In this document: positions 801-38,570 of the stretch, one piece after another
How the letters are laid out: each line of letters opens with the position of its first letter
Numbering within the stretch: the first letter of the stretch is position 1
Notes under the pieces: generated by a model
Told to the model about the DNA's origin: nothing
Database searches by the model: none
Seen by the model: the letters and a program-made list of their open reading frames with translations, nothing else
Assembly: GCA_048885925.1 (NCBI GenBank)
Contig: JBHLLG010000019.1
Coordinates: forward strand, 1-49,127
DNA length: 49,127 bases
Source: Candidatus Hermodarchaeota archaeon
GTDB taxonomy: Archaea; Asgardarchaeota; Lokiarchaeia; Sigyniarchaeales; SOKP01
Direction: 5' to 3'
Made by a program: the position numbers and the translations under genes

Positions 801-1754
801 TTATTTGACGTATTCTGGATAATCTCCTAAGAGGGGTGCGAATAACCGTTCATATTCAACCGCCATACAATGAATCCCAGCAGCCTTAGTGGTTTTCTTA
901 ATTTCATCGATAAATGGTTTGAAGTATTCAATATTGATTTTATCTATGGCCTCATACTTTGCTGACTTATTTCCTTTAGTATCTTTCTCTGCTTTCTTTA
1001 GTGATTTGAGAAGATCCTTCGGAACACTCACGCCGGGAATAAAATTATCGAAATACCAAGCTATTCCGTGTGATTTAAGAGGAAAAATTCCCAACAGCAC
1101 AGGTACGTTGAATTGTTCCAAATCTTTTAGAAAATCTTTTGCTTGATCAATATCAAATGCAGTTTGTGTTTGGATAAAATCTACACCTAAATTCACCTTT
1201 CGACCAACTTTAAGGATCTCAGGTTCGCGCGGATCACTATTTGGATTAGCAACACAGCCAAAGTTCATCTCAATTTTACCACCTTCAAGTTCATTACCTT
1301 CATAATCGGTCCCCTCATCAATCATCATTGAAAGCATTTCAGCAAATTGAGTACTGTCAATATCATATACTGGACGACCTTTTTTATGATCTCCTAAAGC
1401 AGTATGGTCTCCTGTGAGTGTTAGGATATTTTTTAACCCAAGAACAGCACCTGCAATTACATCTCCAAAAAGGGCAACACGGTTTCTATCTCTAACAGTT
1501 ACTTGCCATACAGCTTCAATATTTGCTTTTTCTTGAACCAAATAGCTTGGAACCATTGAAGACATGTATGCATCGCCTTGCGGACCATCTGTCACGTTAG
1601 CAGCTACTATTCTGCCTGTCTTTTTCATTTCTTTAGCAGAATGGATAATTTCATCGAGATTTAAGATTTTTTTTGGTTCTAGTTCTCCAGTAAAAACAAA
1701 ATGGCCTGCTTCTATTGCTTTACATAAATTACTATATGCTGGTCTTTTTGCCAT
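801..1754 (-). CDS. metF: Methylenetetrahydrofolate reductase, FAD subunit
   Basis: FVFTGELEP, NVTDGP, RDRNRVAL, LTLTGDH and GVDFIQTQ motifs of the MetF TIM barrel. Abuts metV with a GGAGGAG Shine-Dalgarno (SD) motif. Confidence 0.93.
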   Translation of the reverse strand: MAKRPAYSNLCKAIEAGHFVFTGELEPKKILNLDEIIHSAKEMKKTGRIVAANVTDGPQGDAYMSSMVPSYLVQEKANIEAVWQVTVRDRNRVALFGDVIAGAVLGLKNILTLTGDHTALGDHKKGRPVYDIDSTQFAEMLSMMIDEGTDYEGNELEGGKIEMNFGCVANPNSDPREPEILKVGRKVNLGVDFIQTQTAFDIDQAKDFLKDLEQFNVPVLLGIFPLKSHGIAWYFDNFIPGVSVPKDLLKSLKKAEKDTKGNKSAKYEAIDKINIEYFKPFIDEIKKTTKAAGIHCMAVEYERLFAPLLGDYPEYVK

Positions 1755-2450
1755 TTATTTTTTCTCCTCCTTTTTTTCTTCAATATTCGTATAATCTTTA
1801 TAAATTTTGTTATACCCAGGGCTTGTAGAGGTCCTATAGTCTCTAGGGCCCCGATATTTCATGAAGAGATCGAGTCTATCAAATTCTTTTAGTCTTTGCC
1901 AGATACGAACCCATGCGCAAGGAATCGTATATCCACCGACTTCACACATTCCTTCAACCATTCCTCCACAAGGTCCATTACTTAGATGCTTAGCACATCC
2001 TGCACGTGGACATACTCCACCTGTTTCACCGATTATACAATCTCCACAAGTTTCGCATAATTCGATATAATTATTTTGGCTATTGTCTTGAGCTCCACCG
2101 AACATGCTATTTTGAGAAGGGTAAGTTAAAATTTTCGGGAGAACTCTATTCATCATTACAACACCGAGTCCACATGCGAGAGTAACAATTGCATCAAAAT
2201 CTTCTTCATAAGGACGGCATGTTGTTGCGGCAATTCTGTCATCACATTGTCTAAGAACAGTTATTGCTTTCCACTTAAGCTCTTTTCCCTCCGTACGGGC
2301 TTTTAGTTCTAAAAGCTGTCCAAGTACTTTTGCTTCATTAAGCGATCGAGGTGGTTGGCAACATCCATCACAACCAGTTATTAAGATTTTATTGTATGGC
2401 TTTATAAGTTCATATATTTCACTTATGTCCTTTTGTTGTGTAATTATCAT
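1755..2450 (-). CDS. metV: MetV, Zn/Fe-S small subunit of MTHFR (MTHFR C-terminal domain family)
   Basis: MIITQQK start, GCDGC, RQCD, ACGLGV, CETCGDC...GGVCP...CAKHLSNGPCGG...C...CAW Cys pattern. Directly upstream of metF. Confidence 0.9.
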   Translation of the reverse strand: MIITQQKDISEIYELIKPYNKILITGCDGCCQPPRSLNEAKVLGQLLELKARTEGKELKWKAITVLRQCDDRIAATTCRPYEEDFDAIVTLACGLGVVMMNRVLPKILTYPSQNSMFGGAQDNSQNNYIELCETCGDCIIGETGGVCPRAGCAKHLSNGPCGGMVEGMCEVGGYTIPCAWVRIWQRLKEFDRLDLFMKYRGPRDYRTSTSPGYNKIYKDYTNIEEKKEEKK

Positions 2451-2543
2451 ATTATTATACTCCTTTTTTCACATTTTTTTTGGTTATTACTTTTAATTTT
2501 CATTTTCTATTAGTTTTATTAGTGTTTAAAAAATTCACACATC

Positions 2544-3428
2544 TTAAATTGTTAATTTTTCAATTAACTTATTCGGTTTCACACTTCTGTTCGTTAGGCT
2601 GAGATCTTGTAGATCAACTCCTAAAGCAACTGCCATAATTTCAGCTAAGTATAAAACAGGTATATCAAGTTCCTTTCCAGTCTTTCGAGCAATAAGTTTT
2701 TCCTTTCTATCATATTGAGTTGTACAAGCTGGACAAACAGCGATTAAAGCGTCTACTTCTTCTTCAAGTTCACATAATTCTGTCATCTTATCTTCAACTA
2801 ATTTTTCTCCTATTTCTTCTTGTAATCGCGCACAAAAACCACAGCATTCTAATTTATTAGCAAACTCAATCGTCTTAGCACCAAGTGCTTGAAGAATTAA
2901 ATCTATTTTTTCTGGTTTCTCAGGGTGGTCAAATCGCATAATTTTACTAGGTCTTACAAGATGACAACCATAATGAACAGCGAGAGTCAAATCATCCAGG
3001 GGTTTTACAGTTAAACTTTTAATTTTTTCTAACCACTCTGGTTGACTAAATAATTCTACAAAATGATAAACTTTAGTCTTTCCTGTATAATGGTAATTAA
3101 TTTTTTTTAGTATTTTATCAATTTTCTCTAAGTATTTATCGTCTTCTTCTAATAACACACTCACAGTTTTTAATGTTTCATAGCAACCTGAACATACGGT
3201 GAGAATATCTAAGCCCATTTTCTCGGCTATTGCTAAGTTTCTTGCGCCTAAAGTAATCCATGTGTCTATATTTAGTGATTGTAAAGATACTGGTTCAGGA
3301 CAACAGCTTACACCTTCCATTTCTTTCAATTTTACATCCAATATACTTGCTACATCTCTAAATGCTTTCTCCAAATGAGGCATCTTTAAAGGTATTGTAC
3401 ATCCTAAATATAATGCGAGTTCCTTCAT
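2544..3428 (-). CDS. hdrB: Heterodisulfide reductase subunit B (two CCG domains)
   Basis: YLGC...SCCP...CSGCY and HYGCH...ECCG...CPAC motifs. ATGA overlap with hdrC. Confidence 0.95.
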   Translation of the reverse strand: MKELALYLGCTIPLKMPHLEKAFRDVASILDVKLKEMEGVSCCPEPVSLQSLNIDTWITLGARNLAIAEKMGLDILTVCSGCYETLKTVSVLLEEDDKYLEKIDKILKKINYHYTGKTKVYHFVELFSQPEWLEKIKSLTVKPLDDLTLAVHYGCHLVRPSKIMRFDHPEKPEKIDLILQALGAKTIEFANKLECCGFCARLQEEIGEKLVEDKMTELCELEEEVDALIAVCPACTTQYDRKEKLIARKTGKELDIPVLYLAEIMAVALGVDLQDLSLTNRSVKPNKLIEKLTI

Positions 3429-3958
3429 TTCTCATCCTCCTTTTTTTTTGCGAGATCTCCTAATCCCGTTTCTTCTATTATTAGTCTAATTTCATCTAGA
3501 TTGGGGGGTATAAGTTGGGGTAGTCCCATCCTATTCCTTCTCCTATCAATATTATCCTTTAGTCCACCTGTATATGGTACTACAAACCCGTTATCATATA
3601 ATGTTACAACAGTTCCAGAATATTCTTTTGGGATTCTCCCCTCCTTAACACACATATTTCTAAGAAGAGCAAGAATGAAAGAATAATCCACATTCTTAGG
3701 ACATCTTTCGGTACATCTATGACATAAAGAACATGTCCAAATTGCCTGACTTGAAAGTACTTCATCCTTTAAACCTAAAAGGCAAGATGCAACAACTCTA
3801 TGTGGTTGCATGTCAACGTATTCCGTTACAGTACAGCCAGAACTGCATACTCCACATTGAATGCAATTTAGAAGTGATTTAGCCCCTACCTTTTTACTAA
3901 TTTCATAACGAAAATTATGATCTAAATCTTTTGCTTGTTTTTTTATCATTTCTACCAT
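3425..3958 (-). CDS. hdrC: Heterodisulfide reductase subunit C (2x[4Fe-4S])
   Basis: CIQCGVCSSGC and IWTCSLCHRCTERCP; lies between hdrA and hdrB. Confidence 0.95.
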   Translation of the reverse strand: MVEMIKKQAKDLDHNFRYEISKKVGAKSLLNCIQCGVCSSGCTVTEYVDMQPHRVVASCLLGLKDEVLSSQAIWTCSLCHRCTERCPKNVDYSFILALLRNMCVKEGRIPKEYSGTVVTLYDNGFVVPYTGGLKDNIDRRRNRMGLPQLIPPNLDEIRLIIEETGLGDLAKKKEDEK

Positions 3959-3960
3959 TT

Positions 3961-6900
3961 TTATGCACCCTCCTTAGCTTTTTCTTTTTTTTCAATTTTA
4001 TCACCTGCCTTTGGAAGCGGTCCTAACTCTTTAATTTGATTAACAAATTCAGTTACCACTTGGGAAAATCGTTTTCCTTCTGATGCACTGACCCATTCGA
4101 GACGATATCTATCAGAATTGATTCCAACACTTTCAAGTATGTCTTTAAGCTCATTATAGCGTTGCAACATGTCGTAATTGCCTTCCAGATAATGACAATC
4201 ACCGATATGACAGCCTCCAACAAAAACTCCATCAGCTCCCTCTAAAAACGCTTGTAAAATAAAGCTTTTTGGTATTCTACCAGTACACATAACTCTTATT
4301 GGTCGAATGTTGGTTGGATACTGAAAACGACTTACGCCACAAGTATCCGCACCCGCATAACTACACCAATTACATAAGAAGGCAACAATCCTAGGCCTTT
4401 CATCTACATATTCACCTTTAACAGCTTCACGGATCATCGGATAAATTTGATGATCTGCAAAATGACTCATTATTATCGCTCCTGCTGGACACGCAGCTGA
4501 ACAATCTCCACAACCTTTACATAAGAGTGGATTAGACTCTGATACCAAGATATCATTATCAAAATTAACTCCTATTGCTCCAAAGTTACATACTTCTTCA
4601 CACTTTTGACAGGCAATGCATAAAGCAGGATCTACAACTGAAACTAGGGGTTCATTCTCAACTTCGCCAGATATTAAGGGAATTAATGCATGAGCTGCCG
4701 CACCACGACCTTGGGAGATCGAATCTGCTATTCCTTTAGGACCATGACAGGTGCCTGCTAAGAATATACCCTCTGTTGCAAAGTCTACAGGTCTTAACTT
4801 AACATGAGCTTCTAGAAAATAGCCTTTTTGATCTCGGGCACATTTGATCATTTCTCCTAATTTTTGTGTATCATGAGGTACTAAAGGTGTTGATAAAACC
4901 ACTTTATCAGCTGTAATTGTAAGGTCAGTTTGAGTTAAGATATCTTTAACATTTACATTTAATTTCTTATTTTTTATCTCAACAGTAGGATATTCATTAA
5001 ATCGAATGTAATTTACATTCTCACGTGCTTTCCAATAATAAAGTTCCTCATCAGTGCCTACTCGGATATCTCTATATAAGACATAAATAGTAGAGTTTGG
5101 ATATGTTTCTCTTACATATAAAGCATGTCTAATTGATTCTGAACAACAAATTAGTGAACAATATGTAACCCCATTTCCATCTTCTGGTTGTCTAGATCCC
5201 ACGCAATGGATAAAAACAAGAGTTTCCCCATCCTTCAATTCATTATTTCTTAATTTTTCAGATAATTCGAGCTGGGTCATTACATTTTCATTTTCACCGT
5301 AATGATACCATCCTTTTGGTTTATACTCATAAGCTCCAGTAGCAGTTACAATTGTACCAACATTTAGACTATGATCCTTCCCTTCAGTGTTATCTTTGAC
5401 TTTTACTTTAAAATCCCCAATTGAGCCTTTTACATCAATAACTTCGGAATTAAGATAAACGATAATATTTTTCTGTTTATTAAACTTTTTTAGTATTGCA
5501 TTTAAGAACTCTTTTGAATCAATTCTATCGAAATTTATTTTATAAATTAAGTTTAATTGACCTCCCAATTTATCCTCTTTTTCAATTAAATGTACTTTAA
5601 ACCCTTTGTTAGCGATTTCTAAAGCAGCACTCATTCCGGTTATTCCGCCCCCAATTACTAGAGCTTCAGGAACAACATTACCTTTGATTTTTAACTCTGT
5701 TTTTTGTGCTGCTACACGAGCGACGCCCATCCTAATGAGATCCTTTGCTTTATCGGTTGCTTTAGGTTTATCATTCATATGCACCCATGAATCTAATTCT
5801 CTGATACTTACAAAATTGAATAAATATTCATTTAGACCTGCTTCTCTAATGGTTTTTTGGAATAATGGTTCGTGAGTTCTTGGAGTGCATGCTGCAACTA
5901 CAACTCTATTTAACCTTAATTCTTCAATTTTTTCTTTAATAGTATCTTGAGTTAATTGTGAGCAGCTATACTTATTTTCCATAGCATACACTACATTTGG
6001 AAGTGTTTTTGCATAATCAACTAACGTTGGAACATCCATATATCCAGCAATATTAATACCACATCGGCAAATGAAGACACCAATTCGAGGTTTGTCCTTT
6101 GGATTCACTGGTTTAAGAGGAGGCAGCTCAACTTTAGTTTCTTCACCACTTAATGGAACAGCATGAGAAGCTGCTAAGGCTGCTGCTCCGCCTGCTTTTG
6201 CTACTGAATTTGCGATATCATCTGGAGATTGACATGAACCAGTTACATAAATTCCATCTCTAGTAGAACGTAGATCTTCTGTGGAGTTACTGGTTTTGAA
6301 AAAGCCTAATTCATTTTGTTCAATACCTAAAATCTTTGCTAATTGCTCAGCATCTTTTCGTGGGGTAACTGCATTTGCAAGAACAACTAAGTCAAACTCA
6401 CTAATTTCGACCTCACCAGTATCAAGATTAGCATGTTTAACATAAAGATTATGATTTTCTGGATTTTCTCGAACATCTCCGGGAATTCCCCTATAATAAA
6501 CAAGACCATATTCATTTTTCGCCCTTTCAATAAATTCCTCTTGATTTTTTCCTATAACTCGAGTATCGTTAAAAAAGATTGTTACATTCGTATCAGGAGC
6601 ATGCTCTCTTGTAACTACTCCTTCTTTAGTTTGATACATACAACAAAATTTAGAGCAATAAGAACATAAATCAATGTTTCTCGATCCGACACAACTGATA
6701 AAACCTATATTGTGTGCATGTTTGTTATCTGAGGGACGTAATAATTCACCTTCCGTAGGACCTGAAGCGCTCAATAATCGTTCATATTGCATAGCAGTAA
6801 TTACATTTGGGTATTCCCCATAATGATAACGATCAAGAACGCTTGGATTAAGTTGATCATATCCAGTAGCACATATAATAGAAGCAACATTATATTCAGC

Positions 6901-31000: not shown

Positions 31001-32227
31001 ATGATAAAAAACATAAATAGTGGGCAAACTTTATTAATAAAAGGTCCAGCAAGAGTAACAGTTTTAGAAGGAAAGATTGAGGTATTAGGGAAAATATTTC
31101 GTCCAGAAAAAGAATCATTTAATAATCCACTAACAAATAATACAAATGTATTAATAATCCCTAGTGCTCAAAGTTATCCCCTATATGGTGTAGAAAAATC
31201 AAAATTAGAGATATATACTAATATTGAAGAATTTGTTAAACTGATAGAAGAAAATTCGATTTCTAATGAATGGATTGAAATTAAAGATTTAATTATTAAA
31301 GCCTTAAAAGAAAATACGAACACTCCTTTGAAGATTATGGTTTTAGGGATTAGCAGTGGTAAAACTACATTTATTAAATACTTAGCAAACAATTTTCTTA
31401 AAGAAGGATTAAAGGGAGGATATCTTGACTCCGATCTAGGCCAACAAATTATATATATACCTACTACAATTAATATTGGTTCTATTTATGATTATATTGT
31501 TTCAAGCGAGAATATTAATTCTGAAAATACTGTTTTTATTGGTGCTACTTTTCCGAAAGGGGATTATAAATTTATAGTTTCAGTTGCAAGTAGGCAATTA
31601 ATAGAAGACTATACCACCAAAAATAAAAATGTTGATTTTGTTTTAATTGATACAGATGGTTGGATTAAAACTGAGGCAGGAATTCTATATAAAAATTTTT
31701 TCATTAAAAAAGTTGATCCCGATATTTTAGTTGTTTTTCACGATGAATCTATTGAAGAATTAAAAATTATTGAAAAGAACTCATCAAGTTTGAGAAAAGA
31801 AAGGAAATTATTCTTAATTAAGGAGATAAACAAATATTTTTATGAAAAAAGTAAAGATGAGAGAAGATTTTTACGCCAAAGTCAATTTTCTAAAAAATTT
31901 GAGTTGTTTAGAAAAATTTCAATTCCTTTAAGCAATATAAAATTTGTTAAAAACGAATATGATAAAGAAAAGGATGAAATCATCGAAAAAGAAATAAAGG
32001 TAAATGATCTTGTTAATCTTCCTTATCATTATGTAATAATAGGTTTAATGACTGAAAAGTCGAAATTGATAGAGATAGCTCTTCTTTTTACTATAAATAT
32101 TGAAAAAAATTATATGTTATTATATTCCAACTTGACGTACAAACAACAAATTAAGGTAAAGAAAATCTTACTTGGTAGTCTTAGATTATCAACAAAAGGA
32201 AATCATCAGGGATATTTATATCTATAA
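31001..32227 (+). CDS. Clp1/Grc3/Nol9-family polynucleotide 5'-kinase
   Basis: N-terminal TLLIKGPARV...G.IEV.G, P-loop GISSGKTT, DSDLGQ, IDTDGW and ERRFLR clasp. Confidence 0.88.
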   Translation: MIKNINSGQTLLIKGPARVTVLEGKIEVLGKIFRPEKESFNNPLTNNTNVLIIPSAQSYPLYGVEKSKLEIYTNIEEFVKLIEENSISNEWIEIKDLIIKALKENTNTPLKIMVLGISSGKTTFIKYLANNFLKEGLKGGYLDSDLGQQIIYIPTTINIGSIYDYIVSSENINSENTVFIGATFPKGDYKFIVSVASRQLIEDYTTKNKNVDFVLIDTDGWIKTEAGILYKNFFIKKVDPDILVVFHDESIEELKIIEKNSSSLRKERKLFLIKEINKYFYEKSKDERRFLRQSQFSKKFELFRKISIPLSNIKFVKNEYDKEKDEIIEKEIKVNDLVNLPYHYVIIGLMTEKSKLIEIALLFTINIEKNYMLLYSNLTYKQQIKVKKILLGSLRLSTKGNHQGYLYL

Positions 32228-32320
32228 TTTATGTTATGTAATATTTGAGTAGTTTTCTCAATATTTTATATCTCATATTAAGACTAATTTTTTTAAATTG
32301 TGTTATAATAATAATAATTT

Positions 32321-33760
32321 ATGAATGAGAATCTTCTCACTAAGTTTCTAAATTTGATGAGCTCAAAAATTACAAATTCAGATTTGAAATTGATTAACCT
32401 AGGTAAATCATTAGGGTTAGATTTGGTATCTTTTGCTGATTTGAGAGCTTCTCAAGAAGATGGTTTTGCCGATGAAATAAGGAATAAAGCTTTAGAGAAG
32501 ATGGAAAAAGAGAGAGATAACTTTTTAACAAACCTTAATTCGTTTTATACAGGAAGCATTGATTTTATGGTCTCTGATGAACCAGAAGGAAAAAAATTTT
32601 TTCTTTTAGAAACAAATGGAGGATCTCACAGGGGTCTTTCGATTATTACTAAAAAACAGCAATCCCTTTTATTTGATGGATATTATGAAGCAATTAATCA
32701 AGCTGTAAAGAAAAGTCCAAGAAGAAGTAAAAAAGTTTTGATTTTAGTTGGAGTACCAGTTAACGATGCATTAATTCATGAGAAAGTGTTAATGATAGAA
32801 TATTTGAGAAAAAAACTTAACACCAACGGCTATACAGTAAAGATTTTTAATACTGATAATTATGATAAACATTTTCAGGCTGAAATTGTGTTCTTGATAG
32901 CAGATTATAAACAACTATCTACTACTCTCTCGTTTTCTAATAATTGGATTAAATATAAAGGAGAAGAAATTAATGTTATTATAGGAGATGGCATTACAAG
33001 GCGTCTAAAGGATAAAAGATTCATACAAATTATTGAAGAAGATTTTCATAAAATAAAATCAATTATTGTTAATCCCATCTTTAAAGTAACTGATGATAAA
33101 TCTTTAACATATTTAGCAAGCTTTTTTAGTAAAAGTTTGCTTATGAAATACAATCTTAGATATCTCTTATTTACTAAAGCATTTACAGAAAAGGAATTAA
33201 TAGAAAAATTAGAATACCTTATAAATGCATACCAAAGATCTTTTATCATCAAACCTAGTGGAGGCTCTGGTGGTGCAGGAGTTATGCCAATTTCCAAAGA
33301 TGAAGATTATTCTAGCATTAAAAATATTGTGAATGAAAGTAAAAAGGAGTTTTTTGCGAAATTCACGAAAGATCGTGATCCATATCCATACACTATTCAA
33401 GAAATGGCAAATTTTTCCTTAATTAATTGGCGAGAAGGAAAACATACATTTGATTTGCGAATATATTTAACCCAAAGAAATGGGATAATTGTACCCGTAG
33501 GAGGTTTAGCAAGAATTGCTCGAGGAAGATACAGTGGAAGTTTAAATAAACAAGAATTTGTAGTTAACTTATCAGGTTATGATGGTCAAATTGAAGTTGA
33601 AAGAGGAATCGGGTTTTCTGAAGATAATTGCATGTTGTTAAATTTAAAAAAAGAAGATTTTGTGAATATGTTTTGTATAGGCTGTGTATTATTTACAAAT
33701 ATTATTAAAAATTATAATAGAATTATTAATTTCTCTAATTGGAGTGAAGTTCTCGATTGA
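32321..33760 (+). CDS. Circularly permuted ATP-grasp peptide/amide ligase (COG2308/CP_ATPgrasp-like)
   Basis: N-terminal GSIDF...LLETN, then DDK, IIKPSGGSGGAGV, IQE, FDLRIY, VGGLARIA and VVNLS. The ExN motif precedes the KP loop, which is the permuted order. Confidence 0.8.
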   Translation: MNENLLTKFLNLMSSKITNSDLKLINLGKSLGLDLVSFADLRASQEDGFADEIRNKALEKMEKERDNFLTNLNSFYTGSIDFMVSDEPEGKKFFLLETNGGSHRGLSIITKKQQSLLFDGYYEAINQAVKKSPRRSKKVLILVGVPVNDALIHEKVLMIEYLRKKLNTNGYTVKIFNTDNYDKHFQAEIVFLIADYKQLSTTLSFSNNWIKYKGEEINVIIGDGITRRLKDKRFIQIIEEDFHKIKSIIVNPIFKVTDDKSLTYLASFFSKSLLMKYNLRYLLFTKAFTEKELIEKLEYLINAYQRSFIIKPSGGSGGAGVMPISKDEDYSSIKNIVNESKKEFFAKFTKDRDPYPYTIQEMANFSLINWREGKHTFDLRIYLTQRNGIIVPVGGLARIARGRYSGSLNKQEFVVNLSGYDGQIEVERGIGFSEDNCMLLNLKKEDFVNMFCIGCVLFTNIIKNYNRIINFSNWSEVLD

Positions 33761-33761
33761 A

Positions 33762-34922
33762 ATGGACCTTGAAACATTAAAATCGTTATTGGATATTTCT
33801 AATCGACATATATTATACAAAAAAATTCTAATTGAACTAGAACAAGTTAAAAGTTTAGATCTAATTACTTATCAAACTTATAGGACTGCTGAAGGAATTA
33901 TCCCCGTTATAAAAGTTTCAAATAATTCTAAATTTGATAATATTCACCATGTTAAAATCTTTATAGGTGCACAGCATAATGAGTATAACGGTTTATTTAG
34001 TATTTTCAAGTTTTTTAAATTACTGCGAGCAGGAAAAATTAATATTAAAAAGATCATTCGAACTAGTCAGGTTCTCTATTTTCTACCATTGATGAATCCT
34101 TATGGATTTCTAAATCCTAATAAAAATAATAAATCAGGGTATTTCTTAAAAAATGGTTCAAATCTTAATAAATTTTGGCGTAGAACATTTGTTCCTGAAT
34201 ATAAAAATGGAATGAAGGATTTGGATAAATTACCATTACCTGAACATGTTTTAATTGTGAAAAAAATACTTAATAAATACTGGGATAATAAAGAAATTAA
34301 AATGTATATACTTGATTTTCATGAAACCTCTTTATTGAAAAGATTTCTCATAGAATTAAGTATGAATCTAAACTTATTTTATAAGTTTGATCATTGGCTT
34401 AAAGAAGGGATTATATTAAATATTATAAAGCTATACGAAATATCTTACCATCAAAAACCTCTATTTTTCAAGTGCAATCCATCCATAGATCATACCCATC
34501 TAAATCTATCTCAAAAAGAATTTCAAACCATTTTAGAAAAACTTCAAGATTATGTTTTAAAAAATCTTAGAAATAATAGATTACCTTTTTATTTTTGCTA
34601 CAGCACCAAAAGTAAAAATTATTGTCAAAGGTTGGCTAATAATGTCTATAATAAATTAAAAGAAAAATTATGGGAAACTTATTTTCCAGCTTTCAGCCAT
34701 AGCTTTCAGAATCATGGTTGTTTTGTAAATATGAGTGATGCAACCACTCGCCCTTGTGTATATGCAATGTCATTAGAATCTGAGAAACATTTCTTAGACT
34801 TATTTGAAGAAATTCAAAAATTAAAATCAGATCCCAATTATTTAAATAATAAACTTAATCTCATTGATGTTAGTATAGAATTAGCCCTTGAAGCTATAAA
34901 ACAAATGATCAATCTATTCTAA
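33762..34922 (+). CDS. Divergent M14-clan zinc carboxypeptidase / succinylglutamate desuccinylase-like protein
   Basis: IFIGAQHNEYNG, PLMNPYGF, NGSNLNKFW, ILDFHE and late SLESE motifs. ATG at 33762 lies 1 nt after the ligase stop. Confidence 0.72.
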   Translation: MDLETLKSLLDISNRHILYKKILIELEQVKSLDLITYQTYRTAEGIIPVIKVSNNSKFDNIHHVKIFIGAQHNEYNGLFSIFKFFKLLRAGKINIKKIIRTSQVLYFLPLMNPYGFLNPNKNNKSGYFLKNGSNLNKFWRRTFVPEYKNGMKDLDKLPLPEHVLIVKKILNKYWDNKEIKMYILDFHETSLLKRFLIELSMNLNLFYKFDHWLKEGIILNIIKLYEISYHQKPLFFKCNPSIDHTHLNLSQKEFQTILEKLQDYVLKNLRNNRLPFYFCYSTKSKNYCQRLANNVYNKLKEKLWETYFPAFSHSFQNHGCFVNMSDATTRPCVYAMSLESEKHFLDLFEEIQKLKSDPNYLNNKLNLIDVSIELALEAIKQMINLF

Positions 34923-36029: not shown

Positions 36030-36350
36030 TTATGGCTTTTTAGGTTTTGGACATCCATAATCATGAGCAATTTGACAACCAGGTTTGCTTTTTAAACCCG
36101 GACAAGGATTACATTTTACTTCACGCAAGATCTTAACAACATCATCGATTTCCATTCCAAATTCTTCATCTTCTGTCTCATCCTCTAGCATATCATCTTT
36201 TATTTTAGTGAGATCATACTCTATATCGTCATCTAAGTCATCTTTCCAATCAGAAAGATCTAAAACTTCTTCTCCCTCTTCATCTATTTTTCCATTTGGA
36301 ACTTCATAATCTTCTTCATCTTCAATTGGAGCTTTCTTTTTTTTAGCCAT
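36030..36350 (-). CDS. Small highly acidic protein with basic N-terminus and Cys4 C-terminus
   Basis: MAKKKK, D/E-rich core, CNPC...C...H...C; ATG start. Confidence 0.75.
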   Translation of the reverse strand: MAKKKKAPIEDEEDYEVPNGKIDEEGEEVLDLSDWKDDLDDDIEYDLTKIKDDMLEDETEDEEFGMEIDDVVKILREVKCNPCPGLKSKPGCQIAHDYGCPKPKKP

Positions 36351-36434: not shown

Positions 36435-38570
36435 TTATATTTCAAAGAATGAAGAGGTTAAAAATATTTTTTGTGGTAATATATTTTGTGTAATCTCCCT
36501 TATTTGCCTTGTTAAATTTGAATTATTATAAAATTTGGTATAAATCCCTTCTAAATGGATTAAAATGTCTTTTAATTCATTTAATTGAAAAACTTGATAA
36601 CTATTTATATGGAATCTTGGAAGTAAAAATTTCAATTGAATTTGGCTAGATTCAATGTCAGAATTTAAAAGTCCTCTTAAAATGTCATAATTAAGATTAG
36701 CTTTTAAGTAAAGCTCATCTAAATATAATAAGTTCACTAAAGCATTGCTTAACTTGTTAAAAAAGTAAAAATATGTTGTAATATCTCTATAAGATTTTTC
36801 TTTAAATGTTTCTAATTCAGGAAAATTCAATATTTTAGATTTATACGAGTTAAGGTCATATTTTAATTGTGAAAGCAGTTGCAAAATTTTTCCTAATTCT
36901 GATAAAAACACAGGAAATTTTCTTGGCATTGGTAATCTTTTAATGAAACTACCGTTGACTCGCAAATAGCCTCCAGACATATGAAGAGTACCAAATAAAG
37001 ATTTAAATATTAGATCCATTAATTCTGAATTCATTATTGTCAGAATACAAAATAAGGTATTGTTATCTATAGAAGTGATTTTAACAAAATATAATCCCGT
37101 TATGTTCGCGAATAAACCTGGATCATAAACCCAAGTTAATTGTTTTGCTATTTCTCTAAAAACTAGTTTTTCACTTTTTAATACTTCCCAAATTTTCCTA
37201 AAATCTTTATTAAATTGAAAGTAAGATACTTTGAGATTTTTTCCCGATATTTTAATATATTTATCGAATTTTATATGATACTTACCGATATTACCTGTCC
37301 CAATTAATAATAAATCTTTTTCAGAATTTTTGAAATTTCTTAAATTATCAAAGTGTTTTGCCCAATTTATAAACCCAAATGGTCTATAATATATTCTTAA
37401 ATCTCTAAATGTCTTTATAAACGGTAAAAAATGAGTATACAGATAATTTATTAAATTTATATTACCAAAAATAGGAAAAACAAGAGAAGGAACTTTCTTT
37501 ATTGATTTCTGAGATATATATGTCGAGTTTAGTCTATTATTTTCTAAAAGATTATTTAGATTATCATAATACTTGATGTTAATAAGAGTATCTTCTTTTG
37601 GTTCATTTTTTTTAAAAGAGAGGATTATTGGATAAGCTGCAGTTTTCCTAAAAATTGGAATTGAAGATATATTGATTATTTCTTTGAGCTCTGTATTATT
37701 TACTAACAAACTTCTGATTTTAACGCCGTAATCTGCGGATAAAAACTTATTTGTTGTTACCATTGAAAAACATCCAATAGTAGATTTTAATAATTCAAAT
37801 GATCTTTCTATAAAAACTATAGAAAGATCAAACAATCGATAAGCTGATTTGAACCTATTTTTCAATTTCTTTTTATATTCAATATTTTTGATCTTTTTGT
37901 TTTCTACATAAGGTGGATTTCCAATTATAATATCAAATTTGTCAGAATTAAATTCTAAAAGAAAGTCTGAATTAAAAATATTTAATTTAATTTCTGATTT
38001 TTCAATAATGTTGTTAAGATCTGTCAGTTTTATATTCTCTAAATTTAAGCTTTTAAATTTTACGTTTTTTATATTATTCGATAACAGCCACTTGAATAAT
38101 CTTAATTTTGAGAGGATATATGCTGAATTTTCTATTTCAATTCCATAGAGGTTATTTTGAAGTATTTCTTTTTTTATGTTAAAGTCTGATAATTCAGGGT
38201 CTATTATTTTATAAAATTTATATAATCGTTCAACTATAGAAATTAAAAATCTCCCAGTACCACATGAGGGATCCAAAATCCTCATATTTTTAATTATTTT
38301 ATTTAAAATTTCCTTAATTTTCTGATTTTCACATAATGAACGTAAGTTTTGTTCTAAATTATGGCTAAATTTGGACTGATTTTGAGAAGTAATAAAATTA
38401 TTAAAATAAATTCTGAAAATATTAGAAATAATATAATCCACAATTTGATTTGGGGTATAAACTATTCCAAGACTGCGATTTTTGTTTTTCTCTAGAAACT
38501 TTTCATTTTCAAAATCTTCAATAAAAGTATCTATAATAGTTAACAGTTTTCGAGCAAATGATTCTTCCAT
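36435..38570 (-). CDS. N6-adenine DNA methyltransferase, gamma class (TaqI/Eco57I-like) with target-recognition domain
   Basis: GIVYTP, motif I ILDPSCGTGRF, YGIEI, motif IV IIGNPPY, and TaqI_C-like KLVFREI...IMNS...GGYLR...IKRLP. Confidence 0.9.
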   Translation of the reverse strand: MEESFARKLLTIIDTFIEDFENEKFLEKNKNRSLGIVYTPNQIVDYIISNIFRIYFNNFITSQNQSKFSHNLEQNLRSLCENQKIKEILNKIIKNMRILDPSCGTGRFLISIVERLYKFYKIIDPELSDFNIKKEILQNNLYGIEIENSAYILSKLRLFKWLLSNNIKNVKFKSLNLENIKLTDLNNIIEKSEIKLNIFNSDFLLEFNSDKFDIIIGNPPYVENKKIKNIEYKKKLKNRFKSAYRLFDLSIVFIERSFELLKSTIGCFSMVTTNKFLSADYGVKIRSLLVNNTELKEIINISSIPIFRKTAAYPIILSFKKNEPKEDTLINIKYYDNLNNLLENNRLNSTYISQKSIKKVPSLVFPIFGNINLINYLYTHFLPFIKTFRDLRIYYRPFGFINWAKHFDNLRNFKNSEKDLLLIGTGNIGKYHIKFDKYIKISGKNLKVSYFQFNKDFRKIWEVLKSEKLVFREIAKQLTWVYDPGLFANITGLYFVKITSIDNNTLFCILTIMNSELMDLIFKSLFGTLHMSGGYLRVNGSFIKRLPMPRKFPVFLSELGKILQLLSQLKYDLNSYKSKILNFPELETFKEKSYRDITTYFYFFNKLSNALVNLLYLDELYLKANLNYDILRGLLNSDIESSQIQLKFLLPRFHINSYQVFQLNELKDILIHLEGIYTKFYNNSNLTRQIREITQNILPQKIFLTSSFFEI

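Follow-up and report, generated by a model that had tools for sequence, protein, structure and literature searches.

Several described systems pair an ATP-grasp ligase with a hydrolase. In glutathionylspermidine synthetase/amidase (GspSA) the product of the synthetase is cleaved again by a hydrolase, and this hydrolase is a fused CHAP cysteine amidase domain. In the TTL/TTLL system an ATP-grasp "writer" is opposed by an M14-clan "eraser", the cytosolic carboxypeptidases (CCPs, M14D), which carry an N-terminal beta-sandwich domain before the catalytic domain. The ligase RimK has deacylase-type gene neighbours. Iyer and colleagues are said to have proposed in 2009 that the COG2308-type systems modify peptides together with peptidase partners, and ATP-grasp ligases with peptidase or deacylase neighbours are reportedly known already. 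Here we analyze a pair of adjacent genes, coding for an ATP-grasp ligase and a hydrolase-like protein, within 49,127 nucleotides of DNA from a Loki-type Asgard archaeon, a Candidatus Hermodarchaeota archaeon (assembly GCA_048885925.1, contig JBHLLG010000019.1, positions 1 to 49,127 of the forward strand). This whole stretch is called the window below. An initial annotation, made from the letters of the window, had read the pair as a candidate writer and eraser of peptide tags. We find that the two genes form a linked unit in Asgard archaea and suggest, with about an even chance of being right, that they encode a synthetase and a hydrolase for a small amide or dipeptide-like compound.

The gene pair and the elements at its borders are as follows.

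32321..33760, + strand: ORF1, predicted permuted ATP-grasp amide ligase of an unnamed rare family, 479 residues

33762..34922, + strand: ORF2, predicted divergent zinc hydrolase-like protein of M14 fold, 386 residues

33758..33764, + strand: stop/start junction TGA-a-ATG, read from the sequence

32290..32299, + strand: A/T-rich TATA-like box, about 22-31 nt 5' of the ligase ATG, read from the sequence

The coordinates of both open reading frames (ORFs) are as first annotated. The junction reads ...gat TGA a ATG gac..., that is, the ligase stop at 33758-33760 is followed after one base by the ATG of ORF2 at 33762, again in agreement with the initial annotation. Such a junction suggests translational coupling of the ligase and ORF2. 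Several database homologues of the ligase are annotated 12 residues shorter (467 residues), which would leave out 32321-32356 of the window. The longer N-terminus is conserved among the homologues, so the 479-residue start looks right. A spacer of 93 nt, rich in A/T, separates the ligase from the gene for a Clp1-type kinase and contains the TATA-like box, a possible promoter for the pair. On the other side, 37 nt lie between ORF2 and a convergent alpha/beta-hydrolase gene. Because of the A/T-rich spacer with its TATA-like box and the convergent gene, the pair appears to be a bicistronic unit of its own. The source genome (95% complete) has one copy of each gene, and both proteins look soluble and suited to expression. 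In a Pfam scan, the neighbours of the pair in the window are Clp1 and alpha/beta hydrolases. No gene for an alpha-E, transglutaminase or proteasome-like/NTN-hydrolase protein was found among the scanned neighbours, and the usual COG2308 partners are therefore indeed not adjacent, as had been noted before. All close homologues with a named source come from metagenome-assembled genomes (MAGs) of Promethearchaeota, Loki-, Hod-, Thor- or Hermodarchaeota, which fits the Asgard origin already supposed in the initial annotation. Judged by sequence, the ligase and the hydrolase are both outside any named family, and a full-text search of the literature found no publication on this gene pair or its families.

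By the fold of its model the ligase is confirmed as a circularly permuted ATP-grasp enzyme that stands among the ligases of the glutathione synthetase type. The AlphaFold2 (AF2) model, built on an alignment of 39 sequences, has a predicted local distance difference test score (pLDDT) of 91.7 and a predicted template modelling score (pTM) of 0.92. All Foldseek matches listed for this model are permuted ligases, with a best E of 9.4e-14: human, yeast and plant (homo)glutathione synthetase, the GSS-like effectors of nematodes, 3k1t, YgiC/YjfC, glutathionylspermidine (Gsp) synthetase, trypanothione synthetase, 3n6x and Cp1B. VIA-align, which is independent of Foldseek, places 3k1t on top with a Z of 15.6 and a root mean square deviation (rmsd) of 4.5 over 335 aligned residues (model 56-469). 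The permuted ligases are collinear with the model over residues ~18/19-469, whereas the canonical ATP-grasps (LysX/ArgX, Ddl, RimK, TTLL) align to it only from about residue 137. Their VIA-align Z values are 13.2 for LysX/ArgX, 10.7 for TTLL11, 9.7 for RimK, 9.3 for TTL and 9.2 for TTLL6. This difference between collinear and partial alignment, together with the order of the motifs, confirms the permuted arrangement, which had at first been deduced from the motifs. On the evidence of the model, the best fold matches of the ligase are permuted ligases and these are mostly known small-molecule enzymes.

The sequence family of the ligase is small, as an exhaustive search of 1.84 billion representatives (E<=1e-3) returned 75 clusters. 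The best Pfam match is ATPgrasp_YheCD, which at 26.0 bits stays below the cut-off of 26.8, followed by ATPgrasp_ST, GSH-S_ATP and others; the permuted families of Pfam are unmatched. In NCBIfam every model is far below its cut-off, and the glutathione synthase models reach E values of 0.01-0.04 with 13-15 bits, compared with cut-offs of 272-408. The possibility that the protein is simply a known glutathione-type synthetase, which the initial annotation had named as one of the refuting outcomes, has not materialised: no glutathione synthetase, GshA or COG2308 model of Pfam or NCBIfam scores above its cut-off. A search of the PDB sequences with the single ligase sequence gave nothing useful and the family profile gave TTLL7 as its only match (E 0.0019). 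Within the 39-sequence alignment, in which the identity goes down to 16-20%, GSIDF (D81) and LLETN (E97, N99) lie about 210 residues N-terminal to IIKPSGGSGGAG (K311, P312), and FDLRIY (R380) and VVNLS follow. The residues D81, E97, N99, K311, P312, G318, G320 and R380 are invariant or at least 90% conserved. We predict that D81, E97 and N99 are the Mg ligands, which would then stand N-terminal to the ATP-binding K311 and the glycine-rich loop 313-320. Equally conserved are the family-specific positions Q45, E154, D223, N251, K260 (TDDK), S340 and P356-Y357-T358, and the motifs TDDK and GDG..RR are marks of the family. Among the 39 members, Pfam matches fall to ATPgrasp_ST in 16, to YheCD in 14, to GSH-S_ATP in 9 and to TTL and CP_ATPgrasp_2 in one each. 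K311-P312 with GGSGGAG, the conserved D81/E97/N99, fold matches with Z of 8-15.6 and weak Pfam matches to ATP-grasp families together place the protein in the ATP-grasp superfamily.

ORF2 has, in its model, the fold of an M14 carboxypeptidase, as the initial annotation had supposed. In Pfam it has no family. PF24827 (AstE_AspA_cat) comes up with an E of 0.2 and 11.6 bits (cut-off 25), and PF00246 is unmatched at E<=1. A PDB sequence search found no match, neither with ORF2 alone nor with a profile of 44 sequences. The AF2 model (pLDDT 88.7) has 86 Foldseek matches in the PDB at E<=0.001, and VIA-align superimposes about 240-268 residues on CPA, CPB, CPD, CPM, CPT and bacterial CCP-type enzymes with Z values of 19.6-21.0; for CPA4 (4a94) the Z is 21.0 and the rmsd 3.4 over 259 residues. 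The model starts with helices at residues 3-31, and the CCP-type enzyme 4a37 aligns to it only by chain residues 80-371. The N-domain of the CCPs is not seen, although no search aimed at it was made. Invariant in the 44-sequence alignment are Q71-H72-N73-E74, N134-L135-N136, D185-x-H187-E188 and E339. Residue 137 is an arginine in at least 90% of the 44 homologues and a lysine in the protein of the window (34170-34172). Compared with the M14 enzymes at the level of motifs, QHNE would be the counterpart of their first zinc motif, NLNR that of the NR motif which binds the carboxylate, H187 that of the second zinc histidine and E339 that of the catalytic glutamate. QHNE is common to all Asgard copies of ORF2, including the most divergent one (genome G281).

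We searched for both genes in a sample of 300 genomes from across the phylum and found the ligase in 65 of them, namely in 62 of the 67 genomes of one Lokiarchaeial family (f1) and in 1 of 7 of a second family (f2), with one weak partial match in a third (f12). The hydrolase was found in 43 of the 300 genomes (41 of 67 in f1, 1 of 7 in f2). The initial annotation had asked whether the pair is conserved across Asgard genomes, and in all 42 genomes that have both genes the hydrolase is indeed located on the contig and strand of the ligase, directly downstream of it. In 40 of these 42 genomes the distance between the aligned ends is 4-24 nt, and in 9 genomes of the genus it is exactly 4 nt; the exceptions are G132, which has an overlapping remnant, and G281 with a gap of 91 nt. 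We note, however, that adjacency within f1 counts for little by itself, since about 15 genes keep their order in all of this family (AroC, oxidoreductase, Mut7-C-like, FmdE-like, hydrolase, Clp1, ligase, the M14-like gene where present, hydrolase, acidic protein, Eco57I-type methylase, phosphatase, Sm, methylase, RIO). G281 belongs to another family, its ligase is 40% identical, and it keeps the pair together despite different neighbours. Further backing for the linkage comes from the bacterial ligase homologues described below, most of which are located beside a hydrolase of the same clan. The gene arrangement thus supports a co-transcribed and functionally linked unit.

The second gene has been lost repeatedly. 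In 22 genomes a strong ligase match is found and no hydrolase match. Decayed hydrolase genes of 78 and 65 residues, each with an internal stop, are left in G192 and G132, and in G275 a remnant of 31 codons is located immediately 3' of the ligase. In five near-complete (97-100%) genomes with the ligase only, we looked for a replacement hydrolase and found neither PF24827 nor a match to the M14-like profile, save the remnant of G275. Among 44 archaeal loci from species-representative genomes, a set which overlaps with the survey and is not independent evidence, 18 have the hydrolase, 23 do not have it although at least 1200 nt follow downstream, and the remaining 3 are too short to tell. Only one genome (G077) has a hydrolase match and no ligase match. 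The ligase-only genomes and the decayed remnants show that the hydrolase is dispensable or accessory, and the two genes can therefore not be an obligate couple of writer and eraser.

A pattern scan of species genomes, which used a narrower ligase alignment, uncovered ten bacterial ligase loci, one in Actinomycetota, one in Bipolaricaulia and eight in Anaerolineae. In eight of the ten the ligase is adjoined by a protein recognised with a custom AstE_AspA_cat profile, and in the other two the contig breaks off immediately behind the ligase. Pfam scans of five of these partners gave AstE_AspA_cat with E values of 1e-18 to 1e-30. This Pfam family is named for succinylglutamate desuccinylase and aspartoacylase, and its characterised members hydrolyse small N-acyl amino acids. 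The profile-profile link from ORF2 to the bacterial AstE-like partners is weak (hhalign, E 7.5e-4 over 75 columns). In the hhalign alignment H72 falls on the ligand histidine of the partners by means of a one-residue gap, and in MAFFT Q71 falls on the same histidine. In some Anaerolineae (L021, L022, L026) two paralogous ligase genes are direct neighbours, which is what a stepwise assembly of a peptide would lead one to expect; the paralogues fall into separate clades of the tree. In two further Anaerolineae loci (L020:1368-4501 and L066:1357-4494) we observed three tandem Peptidase_U32 paralogues upstream of the genes for the ligase and the RtcB-like protein described below, and a class-I methyltransferase beyond the AstE-like gene.

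The ligase tree comprises 57 rows, was calculated with a quick IQ-TREE method and is rooted by assumption on a distant branch of 14 rows. In this tree the Asgard ligases form one clade (Shimodaira-Hasegawa-like approximate likelihood ratio test, SH-aLRT, 99), nested among sequences which include a protein of Methanonatronarchaeum thermophilum (WP_086636686.1), a cultured archaeon. The distant branch has about 20% identity, and one cluster member is annotated as coming from a Cyanobacteria MAG. No M14-like, AstE-like or RtcB-like neighbour was found in 38 metagenome loci of this branch, many of which are short. Instead, a homologous protein with 7-8 transmembrane-like segments is encoded directly downstream of the ligase in all six long loci (in one case with a weak MFS_1 match), and an MFS_3 transporter is located nearby in L099. 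Such membrane proteins would fit with a small product that is exported or imported.

Directly upstream of the ligase, 7 of the 10 bacterial loci have a conserved gene for a protein of about 400 residues. The protein has no Pfam family. A single faint match is to RtcB (E 0.0035), and the lead from the Atlas also points to RtcB. Compared with the canonical RtcB of the source genome by hhalign, the E value is 0.0058 and the probability only 6%, with NHF, H..S, HQ, PHGGG and the C-terminal strand in register. With reserve, we call this protein RtcB-like. The motifs of its family are KPN.CG, SNHFI, H..ELR, N..HQGL, PHGGGY and YRG, and its gene occurs in 137 of the 300 phylum genomes, compared with 65 for the ligase. 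The positions are:

contig 87: 3900-5144 (= L071:3900-5144), - strand: RtcB-like gene of the source genome

L017:4737-5933; L019:3156-4394; L008:1013-2230: RtcB-like genes of other loci

C12:26362-27669: canonical RtcB of the source genome, distinct from the RtcB-like copy

The locus of G281 (L008, G281:C101) has, over positions 1013-6703, the gene order RtcB-like, pyruvoyl arginine decarboxylase, deoxyhypusine synthase, ligase and M14-like gene. Such a polyamine and hypusine setting may be a coincidence, or it may point to an amine as the substrate.

We suggest that the pair could work as follows. The cytosolic ligase would activate the carboxylate of a small metabolite as acyl-phosphate and couple it with an amine, either an amino acid (through its amino group) or a different one. 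This would yield a dipeptide-like or N-acyl-amino-acid compound whose C-terminal carboxylate is free. The M14-fold metallohydrolase could then cleave the same amide and free the C-terminal residue, be it for turnover, recycling or editing. In this way the two genes would be the counterpart of the single-polypeptide glutathionylspermidine synthetase/amidase, with the hydrolase as an accessory which many relatives with the ligase only do without. The pair probably acts on one amide bond, and a small metabolite is more likely as its carrier than a protein tag of the tubulin style. We infer the class of the substrate as well as the direction and role of the hydrolysis from several features with which a small-amide synthetase and hydrolase would fit: the fold relatives of the ligase, the AstE/AspA partners in bacteria, the tandem paralogues, the membrane protein of the distant branch and the dispensability of the hydrolase.

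Several observations weigh against this assignment. The first zinc motif of ORF2 is atypical, as QHNE stands in place of the M14 HxxE, so that even the hydrolase activity is putative. M14 enzymes act mostly on peptides and proteins. The ATP-binding core of the ligase is by sequence nearer to the profiles of YheC/D, of the sugar-transfer-associated ATPgrasp_ST and of TTL than to those of the glutathione type; this discordance between fold and sequence is real. Moreover, the full-length ligase matches within f1 are 50-79% identical, an unusual conservation of a kind seen more often in housekeeping functions than in secondary metabolism. The RtcB-like gene that recurs beside the bacterial ligases is left unexplained by a small-amide pair. 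Finally, in the Asgard loci the pair has neither a transporter gene nor another gene for biosynthesis at its side.

Part of this evidence would be accommodated by reversible tagging of a protein or peptide, in which the ligase adds amino acids to a C-terminus or an acidic side chain, similar to RimK or TTL/TTLL, and the M14 protein trims them in the manner of a CCP. Of the writer/eraser proposal in the initial annotation the permuted ligase, the M14 fold and the linked unit have stood; the TTLL/CCP-like tagging is not supported, and we consider it unlikely. What speaks for it lies in the classes of the two enzymes, that is, the core sequence of the ligase being nearest to YheC/D and TTL-type families and the carboxypeptidase fold of the M14 protein, besides the high conservation of the ligase and the tight coupling of the genes. 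A conserved acidic protein of 106 residues, two genes away throughout f1, could be thought of as the acceptor. It is, however, part of the syntenic block and is not found beside the pair in G281 or in bacteria, and no acceptor protein is indicated otherwise. Furthermore, the top fold matches are permuted ligases, mostly for small molecules, which outscore the partially aligned TTL and TTLL enzymes, 22 genomes with an intact ligase do without the presumed eraser, and the bacterial partners belong to a Pfam family known for small N-acyl amino acids. Still less likely, in our view, is the more far-reaching version of an Asgard-lineage system in which the permuted ATP-grasp adds amino acids to the tail of a conserved cellular protein and the variant M14 enzyme trims them. 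It would be a prokaryotic counterpart in function to the enzymes of the tubulin code, derived from another ATP-grasp lineage, and the bacterial RtcB-like module would be its ancestor.

The RtcB-like gene would gain a meaning if the pair made or removed a cofactor, a protecting group or an aminoacyl-type adduct in an RNA-end pathway, perhaps together with a Clp1-type kinase. In line with this, it is the immediate upstream neighbour of the ligase in 7 of the 10 bacterial loci and is located three genes before the ligase in G281. The same holds for the presence of CLP1_P, CCA-adding-type nucleotidyltransferase and RNase_H_2 genes in the actinomycetotal locus L017; in the window the ligase follows Clp1. 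In addition, the near-complete f1 genomes G104, G248 and G263 are devoid of both the ligase and the RtcB-like gene, but they all belong to one genus and may represent a single event. The RtcB-like gene is unlinked in the source genome (contig 87) and more widely distributed than the ligase, the likeness to RtcB is weak, the Clp1 of the window is probably a housekeeping copy, being the only CLP1_P gene and part of the syntenic block, and a CLP1_P gene occurs in only 1 of the 10 bacterial loci. We therefore regard a role at RNA ends as improbable. The biosynthesis on a carrier peptide, with the ligase loading an amino acid on the C-terminus of a small carrier or scaffold (as in LysW/LysX or the pearlin-like systems) and the carboxypeptidase releasing the product, appears more doubtful still. 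Of the canonical ATP-grasps, LysX/ArgX give one of the better fold matches (3vpb, Z 13.2 over 220 aligned residues), and a C-terminal release step would suit an M14 enzyme, but no conserved small ORF or modifying enzyme is located beside the pair, which is bordered by the 5' spacer and the convergent gene, and a release enzyme would be essential, yet the hydrolase is often lost. That the two genes are unrelated neighbours, kept together by nothing but the gene order of f1, we hold to be very improbable. The synteny of the whole 15-gene region, within which adjacency is not independent, and the fact that the hydrolase can be deleted would be compatible with such a coincidence. However, among the 42 genomes with both genes the M14-like gene is never found apart from the ligase, the pair persists amid other genes in G281, a hydrolase of the same clan is found beside the bacterial ligases, and the spacing in the window is 1 nt.

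The other genes around the pair are of some interest in themselves. The genome has a single CLP1_P gene, the one for the Clp1-type P-loop polynucleotide kinase (31001-32227, + strand) immediately before the ligase. A functional partnership with Clp1 appears unlikely for the Asgard loci, as this sole copy lies inside the long syntenic block. In L017 the CLP1_P gene (3623-4501) is located two genes upstream of the ligase, beside the genes for the CCA-adding-type nucleotidyltransferase and the RNase_H_2 protein. In some Asgard genomes an extra gene for 350 residues without Pfam family is found between Clp1 and the ligase (L004:4982-6034, L025:2275-3327, L059:4656-5708), and the source genome has several paralogues of it with strongly biased composition (C2, C9, C3, C94). 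On the other side of the pair, the 106-residue protein (36030-36350, - strand) is very acidic, has a cysteine-rich basic C-terminus and no Pfam family, and keeps the same position throughout the f1 block; beyond this synteny nothing is in favour of it as an acceptor. It is followed by a gene for an Eco57I/MmeI-type N6-adenine methyltransferase-like protein of 711 residues (36435-38570, - strand), whose synteny across f1 is unusual for a restriction-modification gene.

Two proteins with confident folds and strong conservation are without a name. If they serve a small amide, a major Asgard lineage would have a characteristic new metabolite, which could be a thiol, an osmolyte or a polyamine conjugate, and scattered anaerobic bacteria might make it as well. 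Were a protein the target, an add-and-trim modification of tails would have been invented independently in the closest prokaryotic relatives of the eukaryotes.

Among the known systems, the top structural match is 3k1t, a "putative gamma-glutamylcysteine synthetase" of Methylobacillus flagellatus, which has the same permuted order as the ligase (Foldseek E 5.8e-11) but a structure-based identity of 12-13% and different gene partners. We take 3k1t to be a member of the GshA-like PF08886 / Thiobacillus ferrooxidans-type family. In Pfam the ligase does not match PF08886 at E<=1, and an Atlas feature search with the ligase lists GshA clusters with a score of 0.92. The eukaryotic glutathione and homoglutathione synthetases (2hgs, 8fbz, 1m0w, 3kal) are likewise permuted and of similar size, have the top Foldseek E values of 9.4e-14 to 1e-10 and are collinear from residue ~19; however, the identity is about 12% and their families are not matched by the ligase in Pfam (E<=1) or above the cut-off in NCBIfam. 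The COG2308 proteins (CP_ATPgrasp_1 and _2; 3n6x, Z 12.2) share the permuted ATP-grasp with the ligase, but the query matches neither PF04174 nor PF14403, one of the 39 family members matches PF14403 (CP_ATPgrasp_2, E 0.0018), and the usual partner genes are absent. The TTL/TTLL ligases and the M14D CCPs offer the same combination of enzyme classes as our pair, and there is the likeness in core sequence to TTLL7. These ligases, however, are not permuted and align to ours only over ~137-467 with Z values of 9.2-10.7; PF03133 is unmatched by the query and matched by 1 of the 39 members (2.7e-5). On the side of the hydrolase, the alignment with CCP-type enzymes is confined to the catalytic domain of 4a37, and ORF2 does not have their HxxE.

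Cp1B from the fungal E-64 pathway (9cjn) has an hGSH-synthetase-like fold and is among the fold matches of the ligase (Foldseek E 2.5e-8, Z 10.4). According to PMC12568646, this former "hypothetical protein" is a pseudodipeptide ligase that condenses a dicarboxylic acid with an L-amino acid. Cp1B shows that "hypothetical" enzymes of the glutathione-synthetase-like fold can join carboxylates other than amino acids to amino acids. The identity with our ligase is about 10%, and Cp1B belongs to a biosynthetic cluster of a fungus, in which it is not paired with a hydrolase. GspSA, YgiC/YjfC and trypanothione synthetase are permuted ATP-grasp enzymes like the ligase (2io7, Z 12.8; 7uka, Z 13.2). The ligase has no GSP_synth match in Pfam, and the hydrolase, fused in GspSA, would here be a separate protein of M14 fold. 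In function, GspSA is the nearest analogy to the gene pair.

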